Both the position numbers and the translations under genes were made by a program. The notes below the pieces were generated by a model. The model was not told the DNA's origin. It saw nothing but the letters and a program-made list of their open reading frames with translations, and did no database searches. A DNA stretch of 64,000 nucleotides from Planctomycetota bacterium (lineage in GTDB: Bacteria; Planctomycetota; UBA1135; UBA2386), in contig JBKAGP010000001.1 of assembly GCA_046290465.1 (NCBI GenBank), forward strand, positions 1,312,001 through 1,376,000. Direction: 5' to 3'. Below are positions 43,882-53,018 of this stretch, piece after piece (position 1 is the first letter of the stretch; each line of letters begins with the position of its first letter).

Positions 43882-45150
43882 TCAGGCTTGCATGGGCAGA
43901 ATCGCGGGGCGATCAAGCCGGGCCACCGCCTCCTTCCCCTGACTGGGCCCCATCCGGGCGTATCGCTGCTGCATGACCGGAGCCGTGGTCGCCGTGAGCA
44001 TCGCAGACACCCGAGGATCCACGTCAGCCTCGTAGAGCCGGGTGGAGGCGTAGGTCTTCAACGCATGAAAGTCGATCCGCTCTCGGCCCGAGCACCGCTC
44101 GATTCCAGCGAACTCCAGGTCCTTATCCATGAGCCGCTTGATGTTCTTCGGGACCGGCAGCAAGCAGAACACCCGCTCAGAGGCGAGGGGCTCACGCCGC
44201 AGGTGACCAGCCATCCGAGATCTCCACGCCACGAACTGGTCCCGGAGCCACTCGGGCATGTCGGGCCGTGCCTCCCGACGGTTCTTCGCGTAGGCGGCCT
44301 GGAGCCGCAGGACCGATGCCTCTAGATCCAGGTCGCCCCATTGAATCGACCACAGCGCCTTCTGGCGGACTCCGAGTGTCCCCGCCAGCACGTAGGCCAG
44401 GGCACGCGCCTCCCCACGAATCCGCAGCTCCTGGAGGACGTGCACAGGAGTCCTCGGGTTGGCCTGCAGCTTGTTCTCTACCCCTCGCCGCACCGCAGCA
44501 TCCACGAGCCGAGCAAACTCGTCGGTGGTCATCGCCCGACGGACGAAGGTGGCCGTTGCCTCTGGATGGCTCGGAGAACAGAGCTTGGAGATCGAGGCCA
44601 GCGGGTTGGCATGCAGCCGACCGTGGATCACCAGCCAGCGGCAGAAGTGCCTGAGGCTGTCAAGGTAGTCGTCCCGGGTCTTGCTGCTCTTCGCGCGCAG
44701 CCGGCGCTGCCGTGCAGACTCAGACTCTCCCGCCAGCTCGTCCGCCGATAGACACCGATCCGGAATGCCCGAAGCACAGAACTCGATGAGCAGCGCCTCG
44801 GTGGCGGTGACGTTGATGTCCGTGATCCTCTGCACCCGCAGCCCCCTCAGCATCCGACCAAGCCGCATCGCGACCTGAGCCCGGTAGCCCGGAGTCGTCT
44901 GCCGTGCCTTCAAGTGTTGGAGGAAGTCCCCGACATGCTTGGGGACTGGCTGAGCGGCGAACTCGATCGACTTGTCCACCAGCCCGAACTTGCGGCGGGC
45001 GACCTCAGACTCCAGCTCGTAGGCGACCCGCTCGGCATCTCGCCGGCCGTTACCGTTCGCACGAAACGCTGTAGCCTTCCAACGTTCCTTGCCGTTCTCG
45101 TCCCTGTAGCGGATGGTCCAACGACCCCCGCGATCTACCAAACTCGACAT
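43882..45150 (-). CDS. Tyrosine recombinase / phage-type integrase with atypical catalytic boxes
   Basis: N-terminal arm-binding-like WTIRYRDENGK; GVRQKAL..IQWGDLDL, AKNR, IDFHALK, terminal RY; adjacent to the att repeat. Confidence 0.9.
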   Translation of the reverse strand: MSSLVDRGGRWTIRYRDENGKERWKATAFRANGNGRRDAERVAYELESEVARRKFGLVDKSIEFAAQPVPKHVGDFLQHLKARQTTPGYRAQVAMRLGRMLRGLRVQRITDINVTATEALLIEFCASGIPDRCLSADELAGESESARQRRLRAKSSKTRDDYLDSLRHFCRWLVIHGRLHANPLASISKLCSPSHPEATATFVRRAMTTDEFARLVDAAVRRGVENKLQANPRTPVHVLQELRIRGEARALAYVLAGTLGVRQKALWSIQWGDLDLEASVLRLQAAYAKNRREARPDMPEWLRDQFVAWRSRMAGHLRREPLASERVFCLLPVPKNIKRLMDKDLEFAGIERCSGRERIDFHALKTYASTRLYEADVDPRVSAMLTATTAPVMQQRYARMGPSQGKEAVARLDRPAILPMQA

Positions 45151-47826: not shown

Positions 47827-49545
47827 CTAGCGGCGCTGGAGCTCGTGCGGCACCCAGGCGCGGTGCGGCCGCACGCCGAGCGGTCCCGGCACGCAGTCCT
47901 CGATGTCCTTGCGGAACAGCATCGACGCCATCGGGTGCACGATCAGCGCCGCTGGCTGCTCCTGGTGCGCCAGCTTGTGCAGCTGCTGCCACAGCTCGTT
48001 GCGCCGTTCCGGATCGAACTCCTGCTGGGCTGCGGCCGCGAGCCGGTCGGCCTCCTCGTGCTGCCAACGGCCCTCGCCGCGGTTCTCGAGACCTTCGCTG
48101 TGCAGCAGCGTGTAGGCGCCGCCCCACGGCTCGAATGCCTTCAGGCCGTAGATGCCGTGCCACTGCCGCGCCTTCTTGACCGCCAGGAACTGCGCGTGCT
48201 TCAGCTCGCGAAACTCGAACTGCACGCCAGCGCGGGACGCGGCGTCGGTGATGAGGTCCATCGTGCGCCGCACCGCCGGCGGCGACGGAAACGTCAGGAT
48301 CGTCACCTTCAGCGGCTTGCCCTCGGCGGGGTCGTAGCCGCACTCCCGCAGCAGCGCGCGCGCCGCCTTGGGGTCGTACGGCAGCGGCTGCAGGTCCGGA
48401 TACTCGTCCGAGCCGTAGCGCGCGTGCGCCGCCGCCGGGTGCGCCGCGCCCGACCAGACCTCGACGATGTCCTTGCGCGGGATCAGCATGCCGAGCGCGC
48501 GCCGCACCTTCGGGTCGTTGGTCGGCGCGATCTCGCAGTTCCACGCGATGCGCAGCACGCCGAGCTTGATGTAGTCGTAAACGAGCTTCTCGTAGTCCTG
48601 CTCGAGTTCGGGGCGCGACGCCAGCAGCTGGTCGAGCTGCTGGTCCATGTACCAGTCGACCTCGCCGCGCAGCAGCGCGTTCTTGGCGCCGGCCTGGTCG
48701 CGGAACATGATGCGCACGCCGCCGAGGTTCCAGGTACCCGGCTGCGCGCGGCGCCGCCAGCAGCCCTCGTTGCGGACCAGCAGCAGCTCCTGGCGGCGCT
48801 GCCAGTTCTGCTCGCCGGCCGGGTCGTTGCGCAGTTCATACGGGCCGGTGCCCGGGCCGCATTCTTCGTCGATCCGGTCGACCAGCTCGGCGAAGCGCGC
48901 GCTCGAGACCGGCGGCATCGGCTCGCCGTCGTCGAGCGCCTTCTGCACGCGCTGCTCGAAGAACCGTCGCTGCACCACCGTCCAGCGTTCGCCGACCTGG
49001 TCCAGCGCCGCGTAGTGGCGGCCGTCGAAGTGCACGCGGAAGCGCCGGTCGTCGAGCTCGTCGACCGCCCGCACCCGCTGGAACGCGAGGCCGACGTAGC
49101 CGAGGTTGAGGTGGCCGGCCTGCGCCAGCTCCCAGCCGAACAGCACGTCCTTCATCGTCATCGCACTGCCGTCCGCGAACGTCACGCCGTCGCGCAGCGT
49201 GAACACGCAGGTCGAACCGTCGGCCGACAGCTCGTAGCTCTCGGCCAGGGCCGGTCGCAGCTCCCCGCTCTCCGGGTCGCGGTCGAGCAGCGCTTCGTGC
49301 GTGTAGGCCAGCACCAGGCCGTTGGCGACCGGGTGGTAGGTCGTCAGCGGATTGACGTCGGACGGCTCGCCGCCCGGCAGCGCCCCGGAGTCGACGTGGC
49401 CCTGCGGCTTGCCGGCGAGCGTGCGCGGCATCGTGCCCGTCGTCGTCGGCGTCGAGCCGCTGCCCCACATCACCGTCAGCGCGAGGCCGCCGCCGAACAG
49501 CACGAGCAGCAGGAGCAACAGGAGTGGCAGGGTGCGCATCGGCAT
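47827..49545 (-). CDS. ABC transporter substrate-binding protein, family 5 (peptide/nickel)
   Basis: PALAESYE...FTLRDGVTFADG, GTGPY, DPKVRRAL, YDPKAARALL; no permease genes adjacent. Confidence 0.9.
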   Translation of the reverse strand: MPMRTLPLLLLLLLVLFGGGLALTVMWGSGSTPTTTGTMPRTLAGKPQGHVDSGALPGGEPSDVNPLTTYHPVANGLVLAYTHEALLDRDPESGELRPALAESYELSADGSTCVFTLRDGVTFADGSAMTMKDVLFGWELAQAGHLNLGYVGLAFQRVRAVDELDDRRFRVHFDGRHYAALDQVGERWTVVQRRFFEQRVQKALDDGEPMPPVSSARFAELVDRIDEECGPGTGPYELRNDPAGEQNWQRRQELLLVRNEGCWRRRAQPGTWNLGGVRIMFRDQAGAKNALLRGEVDWYMDQQLDQLLASRPELEQDYEKLVYDYIKLGVLRIAWNCEIAPTNDPKVRRALGMLIPRKDIVEVWSGAAHPAAAHARYGSDEYPDLQPLPYDPKAARALLRECGYDPAEGKPLKVTILTFPSPPAVRRTMDLITDAASRAGVQFEFRELKHAQFLAVKKARQWHGIYGLKAFEPWGGAYTLLHSEGLENRGEGRWQHEEADRLAAAAQQEFDPERRNELWQQLHKLAHQEQPAALIVHPMASMLFRKDIEDCVPGPLGVRPHRAWVPHELQRR

Positions 49546-49591
49546 TTTCGCTCCGCCCGGCATGGTAGCACGCGCCGCGCGCCGCGGTGTC

Positions 49592-49963
49592 TCAAGAACG
49601 CGACGCGAGCGTCATGCCGAGCCACAGGGCGGCGACCCCGAGCACGTTCTGCAGCAGCACGTTGAGGGCAAAGCTCGCGACGCGGCGTTCGTCGAGCAGC
49701 TGGTGGCCGTCGAACGCAAACGCCGAGAACGTCGTGAAGGCGCCGAAGAAGCCGGCCAACACGGCCACCGAGACGGTCTGCGAGACGCGTTCGTGCAGCA
49801 GCGCCCAGCACAGGCCGAAGCCGAAGCAGCCGACGACGTTGACCACGGCGACCGGCCACGGCCCTTCGCCGAGCAGCGAGCGCAGCAGGACCGTCGCGAC
49901 GTAGCGGCAGAGGGCGCCGAGCGCGCCGGCCGCCGCCACCGACAACACGACCGTCAGCTGCAT
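49592..49963 (-). CDS. crcB: Fluoride channel FluC/CrcB
   Basis: GALGALCRY, VNVVGCF, GFFGAFTTFSAF. Confidence 0.93.
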   Translation of the reverse strand: MQLTVVLSVAAAGALGALCRYVATVLLRSLLGEGPWPVAVVNVVGCFGFGLCWALLHERVSQTVSVAVLAGFFGAFTTFSAFAFDGHQLLDERRVASFALNVLLQNVLGVAALWLGMTLASRS

Positions 49964-49976
49964 CGCGAGCGCCTCG

Positions 49977-50021
49977 GGATCACTTCCGCTTGGATCACTT
50001 CCGCTTGGATCACTTCCGCTT
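49977..50021. repeat. Perfect 15-bp tandem triplication spanning the stop codon of the upstream gene
   Basis: GGATCACTTCCGCTT x3 (49977, 49992, 50007). Confidence 0.92.
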
Positions 50022-51239
50022 GGGGTAGTTCTTGAGCACCCACTGCCGCCACTCGGCGTCGAACGTCGCGCCGTCCAGTTCGAACGCCTCGTAGAGCAGC
50101 TTCGGCATCATCTTGCGCAGCCGCGCGCCGTCCGCCTCCCAGTCGCCGCTGCCGGGCACCTGCTTGAGCTTGTCGAGCATCAGGCCGACCTTCTGCGAGT
50201 CGCGCTCCATCAAGAACTGCATGCGCGACCACGACTGCGTGTGCGCGTGGAAGCCGAACTTCTCCCAGTCGTGCATCTCGCACAGCTTGTCGAACGCGAT
50301 CGTCGCGCCCTCGTGCCGCGAACGCTTGTAGATCTTCTCGTACCACTTGTTCTGCGAGTCCTGGTCGACCGACTCGCTGTCGCCGATGCGCGCGCTGATG
50401 AACTCGGACTCGATCTGACGCGAGTAGTAGTGCGCGAGGCCGGTCGAGAACCACAGCGGCAGCGGGTAGTAGAAGCCGCGATAGATGTTCATCAGGTTCT
50501 GCCACATCGCGAACACCATGTGGCTGTGCAGGCCTTCGCTGTCGAAGCCCTCCATGCCCTCGGCCGAGATGCACAGCAGCGGCTGGTGGGTCTGCTTGTG
50601 CACGAACCGGAACGAGTCCTCGGCCTGCGTGTCGCAGAAGCGCTGCATGTAGCGCGCCATGTCGGACTTCTTCTGGAACATCAGCAGCAGGTGCTTGTCC
50701 GGCGCGCCGAGGAACGGCCCCTTGCCGTTCTGCTTCGAGGTCTTGTCGAACGTGCCCTCGGGCGGCTGCACCAGCTCCTCGAACTGCCGGTAGGCCCGCT
50801 CGCAGCGCGCCGCGTACAGGTGCATCTGGGTCCACGGACCGAGCTTGCGCGGCTTGGACGGGAACTTGCGCCACCGCTGGTGCAGCGCCTTGCACTCGGC
50901 GTAGACGGCCTTCTTCTGCTGGTTGTCCTCGGGCAGCCGCGTGGTGGTCATGTTGAAGCCGATGCGGAAGTGCTCGGTCTCCATCCACAGCACGCGTCCG
51001 GGACCGAGCACCTTGTCGACGTCGGTGGTGCTGAAGTGATCCGCCCACGGAAACGGCCCGTAGCGCACCACGCCGAGCGCCTTCATCGCCTCCGGGTCCT
51101 GCTTGGTGAACGGGTCGCCCTTCTCGCTGAGCTTCTGGACCTCGTCGTCCTTCTGGGCGTGCACCGGGACCGTCGCCAGCAGGGCGAACAGCGAGAACGA
51201 CAGGACGGAGAGCAGCGGGCGGTGGTGCGGCGACGGCAT
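50010..51239 (-). CDS. Secreted hypothetical protein with a zincin-like pattern lacking HExxH
   Basis: Signal peptide ending VHA-Q; LPLWFSTGLAHYY resembles PxWxxEGxAxY. Confidence 0.7.
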   Translation of the reverse strand: MPSPHHRPLLSVLSFSLFALLATVPVHAQKDDEVQKLSEKGDPFTKQDPEAMKALGVVRYGPFPWADHFSTTDVDKVLGPGRVLWMETEHFRIGFNMTTTRLPEDNQQKKAVYAECKALHQRWRKFPSKPRKLGPWTQMHLYAARCERAYRQFEELVQPPEGTFDKTSKQNGKGPFLGAPDKHLLLMFQKKSDMARYMQRFCDTQAEDSFRFVHKQTHQPLLCISAEGMEGFDSEGLHSHMVFAMWQNLMNIYRGFYYPLPLWFSTGLAHYYSRQIESEFISARIGDSESVDQDSQNKWYEKIYKRSRHEGATIAFDKLCEMHDWEKFGFHAHTQSWSRMQFLMERDSQKVGLMLDKLKQVPGSGDWEADGARLRKMMPKLLYEAFELDGATFDAEWRQWVLKNYPKRK

Positions 51240-51375
51240 CGTGGCGGCGGGGTGGGTTCGCGAACCAGGGGCCATCGCATCGTCGCGGTGCCCCAGGATC
51301 GCAGCAAGGGGTGGGTACGCGACGCGGGGGCGTGAGCCGAAGCCCACGCCCCCGCGTCGGATCGAGACCGGCGGG

Positions 51376-52305
51376 CTACTTGGCGTCGCCAGCGCCGACC
51401 GTCTCTTCTTCTGCGGCCTTCAGGGCGAGGTCGCGCAGCTCCTTCTCCTTCTTGCGCAGCTTCTCGCGCTCCTTGTCGACCTTGTCGAGATCCTTGTCGA
51501 ACTTCTTCAGCTTCTTCGACTTGGGACCGTTCTTCTCGACCTCCTTGTCGATGCGGCTGCGGATCAGGTCCTCCTTGGCGTCGAGCTTGTCGTACTGGCC
51601 GAGCAGCTTGCGCAGCTGCTTGATCGCCGACTTGGCGTTCTCGTCGTAGCAGCGATCGAGGTACTTGAACATCACCTTCCACAGGTCCGACTGCGACTGG
51701 TCGCCAGGCAGCGCCAGCTTGTGGTCGCCGTTCGGATCCGCGAAGAACAGGTGCGGCACCTTCTTCTCGCCCTCGCCCTTCTTGAACAGGTTGTAGAAGG
51801 GATGCTTCTCGGTGAGCACGTTCGGCGGCAGCTTGACGCACCGGAACCAGTGCGTCAGCAGGACCGTCTGCTCGTTGTCGAGCGTGCGGCTCAGCACCGC
51901 ATGGTCCGTGCCCTTGCACAGCTCACACTCGCGCAGGATCAGCAGCGGACGCTTGTCGCCGTCGGCGACCAGTTCGTACGCCTTCTCGAGCGGGAGCGCG
52001 CGATCGACTTCCTTCGCGACGGTGCGCTCACCCGGCTTGCGGGCAGGCGTCGTCGGCTTGTAGACCGGGTAGGTCCAGTCGATCTTGAGCATCTCCTTCG
52101 CCGTGCGGCCACGACGGAAGTCGAGCGGAATGCCGCCGCCACGGCCACCACCACCCGGAGCGGGAGCAGCACCACGACCCGGAGCAGAACCACGTGGGGT
52201 CCAACTGGACCCGCCACCGCCACTTCATCACTGAGGGGCTGCGGGGCGCGCCAGGATCATGGCGGCCACCGCGCAGAGAGCGCCGGTTGCGATCGTACGA
52301 AGCAT
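51376..52305 (-). CDS. Candidate exported selenoprotein (309 aa): signal peptide, Q-U-U, Gly-rich linker, CxxC thioredoxin-like domain, coiled coil
   Basis: ATG at 52305 with SD GGAGGA is in frame (213 nt) with the track ORF start at 52092; the only stops between them are adjacent TGA TGA at codons 26-27 (52225-52230). Coding of 51376-52092 is well supported; readthrough is inferred. Confidence 0.7.
52194..52217 (-). promoter_or_regulatory. Putative bacterial SECIS hairpin
   Basis: mRNA GUG-GC-GGGUCC-AGUU-GGACCC-CAC; the loop starts 18 nt after the second UGA and has G at loop position 2 followed by U. Confidence 0.6.
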
Positions 52306-52526
52306 GTTTCGGATTCCTCCAGGTGGTGCCGGGTGTGAGTGGCACCTGGCTGTCTCGGGCAGGCAGCCTTATCTGATCAGTGTATCGGCCTGCCGCCCCC
52401 AGGCAACCCAAGCCGCAAAACGACCTTCGAGCGACCCGCACGATCGGCGCGTGGCCCGTTGACTCGATGCCGTCGGCAGGACACGCTGCCGCGCTTCTCC
52501 GACCCCCACCGCGACGCTGCGCCACC

Positions 52527-53018
52527 GTGAACGCCTCCGACACCCCCGACGACCCGACCCCGGCCCCCGATTCCTGGTCGGCGACACTGGAAGAACTCCG
52601 CACCCGCTACCCCGGCCAGAAGGACAGCGTGCTGTTCTGCGTGCACAAGCTGCAGCAGGACCCGGCCGTCGGGCTGCCCGACCTGCGCGACGAGGCCGCC
52701 GACCGCGGCATCCCGATGGCCGGTCGCGCGCTGCATTCGGCCAAGGTGCTGCTCGGCATGGCCGAGGCCAGGCCGCGACGGCCGGCGGCGCCGCGCGACG
52801 AGCGCGCCGCCGCCGGCCAACGTGCCTCGCGAGCCGAAGGACGCGCGGAGCGCAGCCGTTCCGAGCGGGGCCGCAGCGACGAGCCCGCCGGCGCCATCGA
52901 GGACCAGGTGCTCGCGGCCGTTCGCCAGATCCAGTCCGCCGCTGGCGCCGAAGCCGAACGCATGCGCACCGCGATCCGGCAGGCGATCGCGATCCTGCAG
53001 GACGCGTTGGAAGAGTAG
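52527..53018 (+). CDS. Hypothetical protein
   Basis: GTG start, host codon usage, helical N- and C-terminal parts joined by an Arg-rich linker. Confidence 0.7.
   Translation: MNASDTPDDPTPAPDSWSATLEELRTRYPGQKDSVLFCVHKLQQDPAVGLPDLRDEAADRGIPMAGRALHSAKVLLGMAEARPRRPAAPRDERAAAGQRASRAEGRAERSRSERGRSDEPAGAIEDQVLAAVRQIQSAAGAEAERMRTAIRQAIAILQDALEE

Follow-up and report, generated by a model that had tools for sequence, protein, structure and literature searches.

A conserved, predicted exported selenoprotein family of Planctomycetota with two adjacent putative selenocysteines and a pseudo-peptidase neighbour

Does the TGA TGA doublet at 52225..52230 (minus strand) of the window, i.e. the whole stretch of 64,000 nucleotides analysed here, end a short peptide or encode two consecutive selenocysteines (Sec, U)? 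Read from the ATG at 52305, the frame has 25 sense codons, then the doublet, and is open from there through to a TAG (51378-51376). The full CDS (51376..52305, minus strand) gives 309 aa with both TGA codons read as Sec, and homologs are present in 51 of the 61 related genomes. A Shine-Dalgarno sequence GGAGGA (52315..52320, minus strand) lies 9 nt upstream of this ATG, and a similar purine-rich motif precedes most of the 26 homolog starts listed. The first-pass annotation had described this ribosome-binding site, its spacing, the in-frame doublet and the 309-aa readthrough product, all of which we recovered. It had also judged the internal ATG at 52092 to be poorly placed for initiation, and this codon is indeed preceded by AAGGAG with zero spacing. 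As it had supposed, gene callers truncate the gene: the ESM Atlas holds the 238-aa truncated form, which matches letter for letter. No promoter-like or terminator-like site was found at the locus, and an Rfam scan gave no match above the gathering score. Beyond that annotation, we found a SECIS-type hairpin and a conserved pseudo-peptidase partner gene. Our answer, drawn from sequence comparison, is that this gene almost certainly belongs to a real, conserved, probably exported selenoprotein family, with a tandem Sec-Sec in the present member.

The doublet is not an assembly error, since it occurs in 33 homologs and since a contig of run X1, which may be the source sample, is identical to the window over 49994-52600 at a depth of 117. 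Furthermore, all 15 best same-genus matches (this genome and 14 relatives) contain exactly two in-match TGA codons, at the same place. A metatranscriptome contig of a relative (X16) spans 52046-52306 with 34 differences, and none of the 30 listed falls on the TGA codons. The X16 contigs tell neither expression level nor strand, and the lack of RNA cover over the partner gene is no evidence.

Recoding presupposes the Sec machinery, and selA, selB, selC and selD were all found in the host genome (6.59 Mb, 70% G+C), with selB at 353.7 bits (cut-off 242) and the tRNA-Sec gene selC at 72.8 bits (cut-off 47). Among the 61 related genomes, 60 have selA and 58 have selB. In this genome, selA and selD are adjacent and located just before the window start (contig 1310605-1311945; L001:368-1435, minus strand). 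Since selD has an in-frame TGA at its own UxxK active site, it would itself be a selenoprotein. A reassigned code, with TGA read as Trp or Gly, is ruled out: TGA is the commonest stop, ending 1185 of the 2018 long ORFs of the genome, which excludes codes 4 and 25. It also terminates 27 of the 70 family members.

In a crude genome-wide scan, 27 in-frame TGA codons were followed by a hairpin and by sequence that looks coding; judged by eye, many resemble real selenoproteins and some are ordinary stops. Candidates that we take, by eye, to be selenoproteins include two MsrA-like proteins, a peroxiredoxin-like and an AhpD-like protein and a thioredoxin with UxxC. Others are presumably several HMA-like proteins, an FG-GAP protein and a MetE-like protein. 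The host lineage thus seems to have many selenoproteins. Elsewhere in the genome, a signal-bearing frame of 441 codons (contig 4051363-4052685, minus strand) that is unrelated to the Sec-Sec family has another in-frame TGA TGA (near 4052097), with a hairpin after it. It was rejected as a second UU protein, eight distant homolog loci having neither TGA nor Cys there.

The main evidence for recoding comes from the homologs. Searches of the 61 genomes of the same genus, family and order gave 86 matches. Twelve were left out (seven full-length, paralog-type matches without stops and five partial ones) and one was the second piece of a gene already counted. Among the 73 ORFs examined, three lacked an anchor, one being cut by the locus edge and two having neither U nor C, since the motif was located by a search for these residues. 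In the other 70, the two codons are UU in 33 cases, UC in 18, CU in two, Cys-only in 12 and a single U in five, four of these five having a Cys four or five residues further on. The first motif codon is TGA in 56 members and TGY in 14, without any other codon, and TGG is found at neither position. A Gln directly precedes the motif in 62 of the 70, as does Gln25 before Sec26-Sec27 here. None of the refuting conditions named at first pass was encountered. An interchange of TGA and TGY among UU, UC, CU and CC had been proposed at first pass; the first three forms were found, but CC never was.

Kin among these homologs are not independent, 15 of the 33 UU genes coming from one genus. On a quick maximum-likelihood tree, UU needs nine changes, seven of which are forced by well-supported branches. 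Therefore, swaps of Sec and Cys at the second position are recurrent, with a direction that cannot be read from this midpoint-drawn tree.

The family extends beyond these genomes. A stricter, phylum-wide search found a homolog in at least 52 of 301 genomes. A search for related loci with the single protein gave 20 loci, mostly labelled Planctomycetota, and a profile search at E 0.001 brought in 550 representatives. Among the best 150 of these 550, 85 have no hydrophobic start, and the full-length proteins mostly have a single Cys, sometimes none, and never CC. The CC motif is thus absent from the 70 genomic members and from the 65 database proteins with a hydrophobic start, which suggests that the vicinal pair needs at least one selenium here. 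In thioredoxin reductase, the strain of the eight-membered ring is relieved by selenium, which fits the missing CC form. The vicinal pair is not needed family-wide, since 12 paralogs manage with one Cys. One such Cys-only paralog (L055) is carried by the same genome (contig 4244537-4245463). It has no SECIS, and a pseudo-peptidase gene of its own lies upstream, so that the genome contains both a Sec and a Cys version of the module. Homologs that are 87-88% identical occur in two records labelled Luminiphilus sp. and Brocadiaceae. Because of this identity to proteins of the genus studied here, labelling differences are more likely than transfer.

More distant relatives (at least 15 proteins from other families of the phylum) also have a U after a signal-like peptide, with UC, CU or UxxxxC-type motifs and short linkers. 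Among the 15 listed, none has UU, and none has CxxC where the region is shown. At the loci L119-L131, the motifs are UC, CU and UGGGxC, the linker is nearly absent, and two copies sometimes stand in tandem (L122, L123). The hairpin of the strict type described below is lacking in most of these relatives, which may use another SECIS form.

In bacteria, a SECIS element is part of the coding region, and its distance from the UGA is fixed (20 nt in E. coli fdhF). Here, a candidate in-ORF SECIS (52197..52212, minus strand) has a 6-bp stem, a loop AGUU (52206-52203) and an energy of -10.4 kcal/mol. The loop starts 18 nt downstream of the second UGA; measured to the loop G, the distance is 20 nt from that codon and 23 nt from the first UGA. 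A strict rule (at least six pairs, a loop with G then U or G, a loop start 17-23 nt downstream) was satisfied by 51 of the 58 Sec members, none of the 12 Cys-only members and 43 of 1624 background downstream windows. The first count is partly fitted, since we formulated this rule with the Sec members already in view; both controls share the rule. When the same peptides were recoded with synonymous codons (500 trials), 2.4 of the 58 passed on average and never more than 7, against 51 observed, and the hairpin is therefore selected beyond the encoded protein. Moreover, four of the six stem pairs are changed on both sides among 15 examples with a four-nucleotide loop, in rows that were pre-selected for pairing, which leans towards structure, and two of which are out of register. 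The global folding energy of the 86-nt region is not exceptional for the hairpin (z +1.17). A loose hairpin rule separated the classes poorly, 7 of 12 Cys-only members passing it, and was abandoned; position plus loop type separates them.

The same hairpin would have to serve two codons. For 26 of 32 UU genes, the spacing of the loop G is 20 nt from the second UGA, hence 23 nt from the first, and the single-Sec members have a spacing of 19-20 nt in four cases and of 22-23 nt in 15. This use of both spacings by single-Sec members is our strongest reason to think that a single hairpin can suffice for the two UGA codons. The hairpin also agrees with a published consensus bSECIS model, i.e. a G in the first two loop positions, a spacing of 16-37 nt and an energy below -7.5 kcal/mol (PMC13188914). 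From these comparisons, Sec readthrough of the UGA codons seems hardly in doubt, and it is very likely that both of them are read as Sec.

The first pass had seen a single gene beginning with a signal peptide, and the homologs agree with it. Codons 1-24 (52234..52305, minus strand) specify a basic start and a hydrophobic core, whose best 11-aa hydropathy is 2.7 here and at least 1.6 in 70 of 70 homologs. A K or R is found within the first seven residues in 63 of 70 homologs, and RR in only five. In 17 close homologs, pN/pS over codons 2-25 is 0.33 in frame versus 1.25 and 2.51 in the other frames, and falls to 0.01 over codons 19-25. These values indicate that the signal region is under purifying selection. 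In addition, the Met at position 72, which corresponds to the internal ATG at 52092, is found in only 8 of 63 aligned homologs. The protein is thus predicted to be exported through a Sec-pathway-like signal. Cleavage would leave the Sec pair at or near the mature N-terminus; the cut may fall a few residues before the Gln, since the commonest motif puts a Pro before the Gln, an unusual -1 residue.

An AlphaFold2 model built from 63 sequences (mean pLDDT 85.1) contains the disordered arm ahead of a thioredoxin-like domain that had been anticipated at first pass. It comprises a signal helix, an arm at residues 28-55 with segments of pLDDT below 50, the thioredoxin-like domain (about residues 65-220; 51646..52113, minus strand) and a C-terminal helical hairpin (residues 224-291; 51433..51636, minus strand). 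The predicted disordered linker, about residues 28-62 (52120..52224, minus strand), is rich in Gly, Pro, Ala and Ser, and linker length varies from 13 to 116 aa among the 63 aligned members. Nearly all top Foldseek rows are thioredoxin-fold proteins (best E 0.008, none at E 0.001). VIA-align gave the C-terminal domain of DsbD (1vrs_D, Z 9.0, rmsd 3.0, 110 residues aligned), 3f9u (Z 8.8) and AGR3 (Z 8.6), most other rows matching the hairpin only. An HMM search reached 3fk8 at E 0.01, and ESM Atlas neighbours belong to PF13899 at 0.80-0.82, which serves as a lead only.

The CxxC (C127 and C130; 51916..51927, minus strand) directly follows strand 121-125, the usual thioredoxin position. C127 is kept in 55 and C130 in 52 of the 63 aligned members. 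By class, CxxC is present in 33 of 33 UU, 11 of 18 UC, 2 of 2 CU, 2 of 5 single-U and 11 of 12 Cys-only members, and it is absent from 10 of the 58 Sec members. Hence, the exchange between arm and CxxC put forward at first pass is unsupported as an obligatory step family-wide, being precluded in 7 of 18 UC and 3 of 5 single-U members; moreover, the arm is undocked in the AlphaFold2 model, and it was left out of the complex prediction described below.

The partner gene (50010..51278, minus strand) starts at 51278, 97 nt downstream of the Sec-Sec gene and on the same strand. It encodes 422 aa with a signal-like N-terminus, a predicted gluzincin fold and a degenerate zinc motif. A homolog of it lies on the same strand, upstream or downstream, in 48 of 70 loci and in 29 of the 33 UU loci, paralogous copies included; it was not seen in 22 of 70 loci, several of which have cut flanks. 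The model of the partner (pLDDT 90.9) has 7zbv as best Foldseek row (E 6.4e-4, TM 0.37), and the top six rows are collagenase peptidase domains. The HExxH zinc motif is found in none of the 44 partner members, which makes the partner a pseudo-peptidase. The catalytic Glu and the second His are lost, and the third-ligand Glu is present in only 20 of 44, while H251 (38 of 44) and H283 (37 of 44) are kept near the dead zinc site. Further along the same strand, after the partner, the window carries genes for a CrcB/Fluc fluoride channel and for a family-5 extracellular solute-binding protein (47827-49963, minus strand). A 422-aa ORF at 43882-45150 (minus strand) is tyrosine integrase-like by eye, which suggests that a mobile element has its boundary there, some 5 kb downstream from the partner gene.

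The two proteins are likely to form a heterodimer, as judged from the predicted complex between partner residues 40-422 and residues 57-298 of the Sec-Sec protein, which has an ipSAE of 0.83 versus 0.02 for the best of three controls. In the calibration, 116 of 157 solved complexes attain this ipSAE mark, as do 2 of 215 mismatched pairs; since our own alignments were used, these figures are only rough. The runs share at least 74% of contacts, with a partner pLDDT of at least 80. To our knowledge, and as far as single-chain fold searches go, there is no solved complex of this kind for the model to recall. The main predicted contact joins the hairpin tip (246-261) to partner residues 302-325, and residues by the CxxC (126, 128, 158-165) would touch partner residues 89-95 and 203-213. 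Several interface positions are conserved, with E or D at 126 in 60 of 63, G260 in 54 of 63, and, in the partner, K203 and R209 in 38 of 44 and R319 in 35 of 44. E126 and E128, beside the CxxC and in the predicted interface, may be partly shielded. According to this model, the Sec-Sec protein probably works bound to its dead-peptidase neighbour.

These elements can be assembled into a mechanism. SelB bound to the single in-ORF SECIS would deliver Sec at two consecutive UGA codons, a step with very strong genomic support. Once the protein is exported and its signal peptide removed, a long disordered tether would carry the Sec-Sec at, or close to, the N-terminus of the mature chain, while the thioredoxin-like domain and the helical hairpin would dock on the neighbouring pseudo-peptidase. 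We infer that the vicinal selenol pair would act as a swinging redox arm, alternating between the diselenol and the cyclic diselenide. Its substrates, periplasmic or at the surface, would sit in the dead peptidase cleft of the partner and have their disulfides, or other oxidised groups, reduced or reshuffled by the arm. The CxxC probably re-reduces the arm in the UU subgroup, and the family can manage without it. Overall, an exported double selenoprotein with a redox arm, docked on a pseudo-peptidase, is the explanation towards which we lean, and the redox chemistry of the arm, taken by itself, is mildly favoured. The fuller picture of a two-protein extracytoplasmic redox machine of Planctomycetota, in which a diselenide arm and a thioredoxin-fold subunit act with a dead gluzincin that presents peptide substrates, is put forward only tentatively.

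The arm might instead be a trap or hand-off site for soft metals (Hg, Cu, Ag, As), without any disulfide exchange, a reading that we consider unlikely but worth weighing. Mercuric reductase, with a vicinal Cys pair on a C-terminal arm, offers a model for it, and a freely tethered vicinal pair is well suited to bind a metal in two-coordinate fashion. The dispensability of the CxxC in some Sec members, the several candidate Sec proteins with HMA-like motifs in the genome and the two His kept near the dead zinc site of the partner would all fit, as would a report in which CU motifs mark organometallic systems (bioRxiv 10.1101/2022.07.06.499078). However, the only conserved neighbour among those tested is the pseudo-peptidase, all UU members have a thioredoxin fold with a correctly placed CxxC, and the CC variants that would also bind metals well are lacking.

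If the double UGA were mainly a selenium-sensing translational gate, the Sec residues would be chemically minor. Two inefficient recodings very early in the ORF would then allow the domain to be made only with ample selenium; the low complexity and variable length of the arm and the repeated U/C toggling at the second position are compatible with such a role. This is improbable, since a Cys is kept at the same place in paralogs without UGA (12 of 70, and most full-length database proteins), which argues that the side chain of the motif is selected, and since in the UC, CU and UxxxxC variants the Sec still has a second chalcogen adjacent or close by. It is even more improbable that only one UGA is efficiently used for Sec, the other giving Trp or Cys by near-cognate decoding, or termination, and hence a mixed product. 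Bacterial SECIS spacing is regarded as tight, and a single hairpin faces two UGA codons at 20 and 23 nt in most UU genes. Nevertheless, both spacings occur in single-Sec genes of the family and no member has TGG at a motif codon; the published consensus also permits 16-37 nt (PMC13188914). Finally, a true double stop (giving a 25-residue peptide and a 238-aa protein from ATG 52092), a pseudogene, an assembly error or a reassigned code can practically be dismissed: gene callers do read TGA TGA in this way, TGA is the commonest stop and the unconserved doublet with hairpin elsewhere in the genome means that the pattern can arise without meaning, but here the frame is always kept, TGA and TGY interchange, the SECIS is found only in TGA members, the upstream codons are under purifying selection, the Met at position 72 is rare, full-length Cys paralogs exist (one of them in the same genome) and, TGA being the main stop, codes 4 and 25 are excluded.

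The preferred reading, an exported double selenoprotein, can be compared with known systems. Mammalian thioredoxin reductase, with its C-terminal Gly-Cys-Sec-Gly, also has a vicinal pair on a mobile terminal arm, which would be a possible electron shuttle in both cases. This is an analogy only: here there is no flavoprotein, and the arm would be N-terminal, extracytoplasmic and Sec-Sec. As in other bacterial SelB/SECIS selenoproteins, an in-frame UGA, an in-ORF hairpin, the full sel machinery and Cys homologs are found, but one hairpin would serve two consecutive UGA codons. Extracytoplasmic thioredoxin-fold domains, i.e. the DsbD C-terminal domain (1vrs), the Thioredoxin_7 type (3f9u, 3fk8) and AGR2/AGR3/ERp18, are alike in fold and CxxC position (VIA Z 8.6-9.0, Foldseek E 0.008-0.08), whereas the present protein adds a Sec arm, a helical hairpin and a dedicated partner. 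The partner resembles gluzincins (7zbv, 7wss; Foldseek TM 0.37-0.41), has a conserved P-x-W...G segment and gave weak Pfam matches to Peptidase_MA_2 in two and to DUF1570 in one of 44 members. Unlike active gluzincins, all 44 members are devoid of HExxH.

Searches of Pfam, NCBIfam and PDB sequences assigned no family to the Sec-Sec protein. No selenoprotein or thioredoxin model of NCBIfam 20.0 matched any of 63 members at E 0.01, and none of the 63 matched Pfam. The first-pass view that no such family had been described holds for these databases, but adjacent Sec-Sec as such is already in print: the algal protein PDI_e has a GUGUU motif, presented as the first reported consecutive Sec-Sec, and its authors found no bacterial homolog (PMC7539508). 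Going by that description, PDI_e shares two consecutive Sec and membership of a thioredoxin-like protein family with the present protein, but differs by eukaryotic decoding, a 3' UTR SECIS and three Sec (PMC7539508). Its motif is not matched here, where the residues are Q-U-U with at most two Sec. SaoC (NF040734) and KCU-star (NF033934) also have a vicinal chalcogen pair at a chain end, and SaoC is exported (bioRxiv 10.1101/2022.07.06.499078). Their pair is a C-terminal Cys-Sec-COOH with mostly CC homologs, whereas here it is N-terminal, mostly UU or UC and never CC. In PMC13188914, Table 1 has 119 prokaryotic families, none with a UU motif, some rows being without motif, and Planctomycetes are not mentioned in the parts available. 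Likewise, the accessible parts of BSepDB (PMC13326102), deep-Sep (PMC12013277), bioRxiv 10.1101/2022.07.06.499078 and PMC10778597 contain no such family. It is therefore uncatalogued in the catalogues searched, although the candidates of BSepDB or of Deng et al. 2026 could contain it. No bacterial Sec-Sec was found in the literature searched, which does not prove its absence from print.

If these conclusions are true, two things would be new, namely bacteria that recode UGA codons in tandem and a selenoprotein paired with a pseudo-peptidase. A conserved gene with one hairpin for two UGA codons makes the spacing tolerance of SelB directly testable, and provides protein engineers with a natural model for introducing a vicinal Sec-Sec pair. 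Furthermore, the series UU, UC, CU, UxxxxC and C, never CC, on one scaffold would let one ask directly what a vicinal pair gains from selenium as compared with sulfur, a long-standing question. Moreover, with 550 representatives at E 0.001, this would be a widespread family of exported selenoproteins that databases largely hold without its N-terminus.
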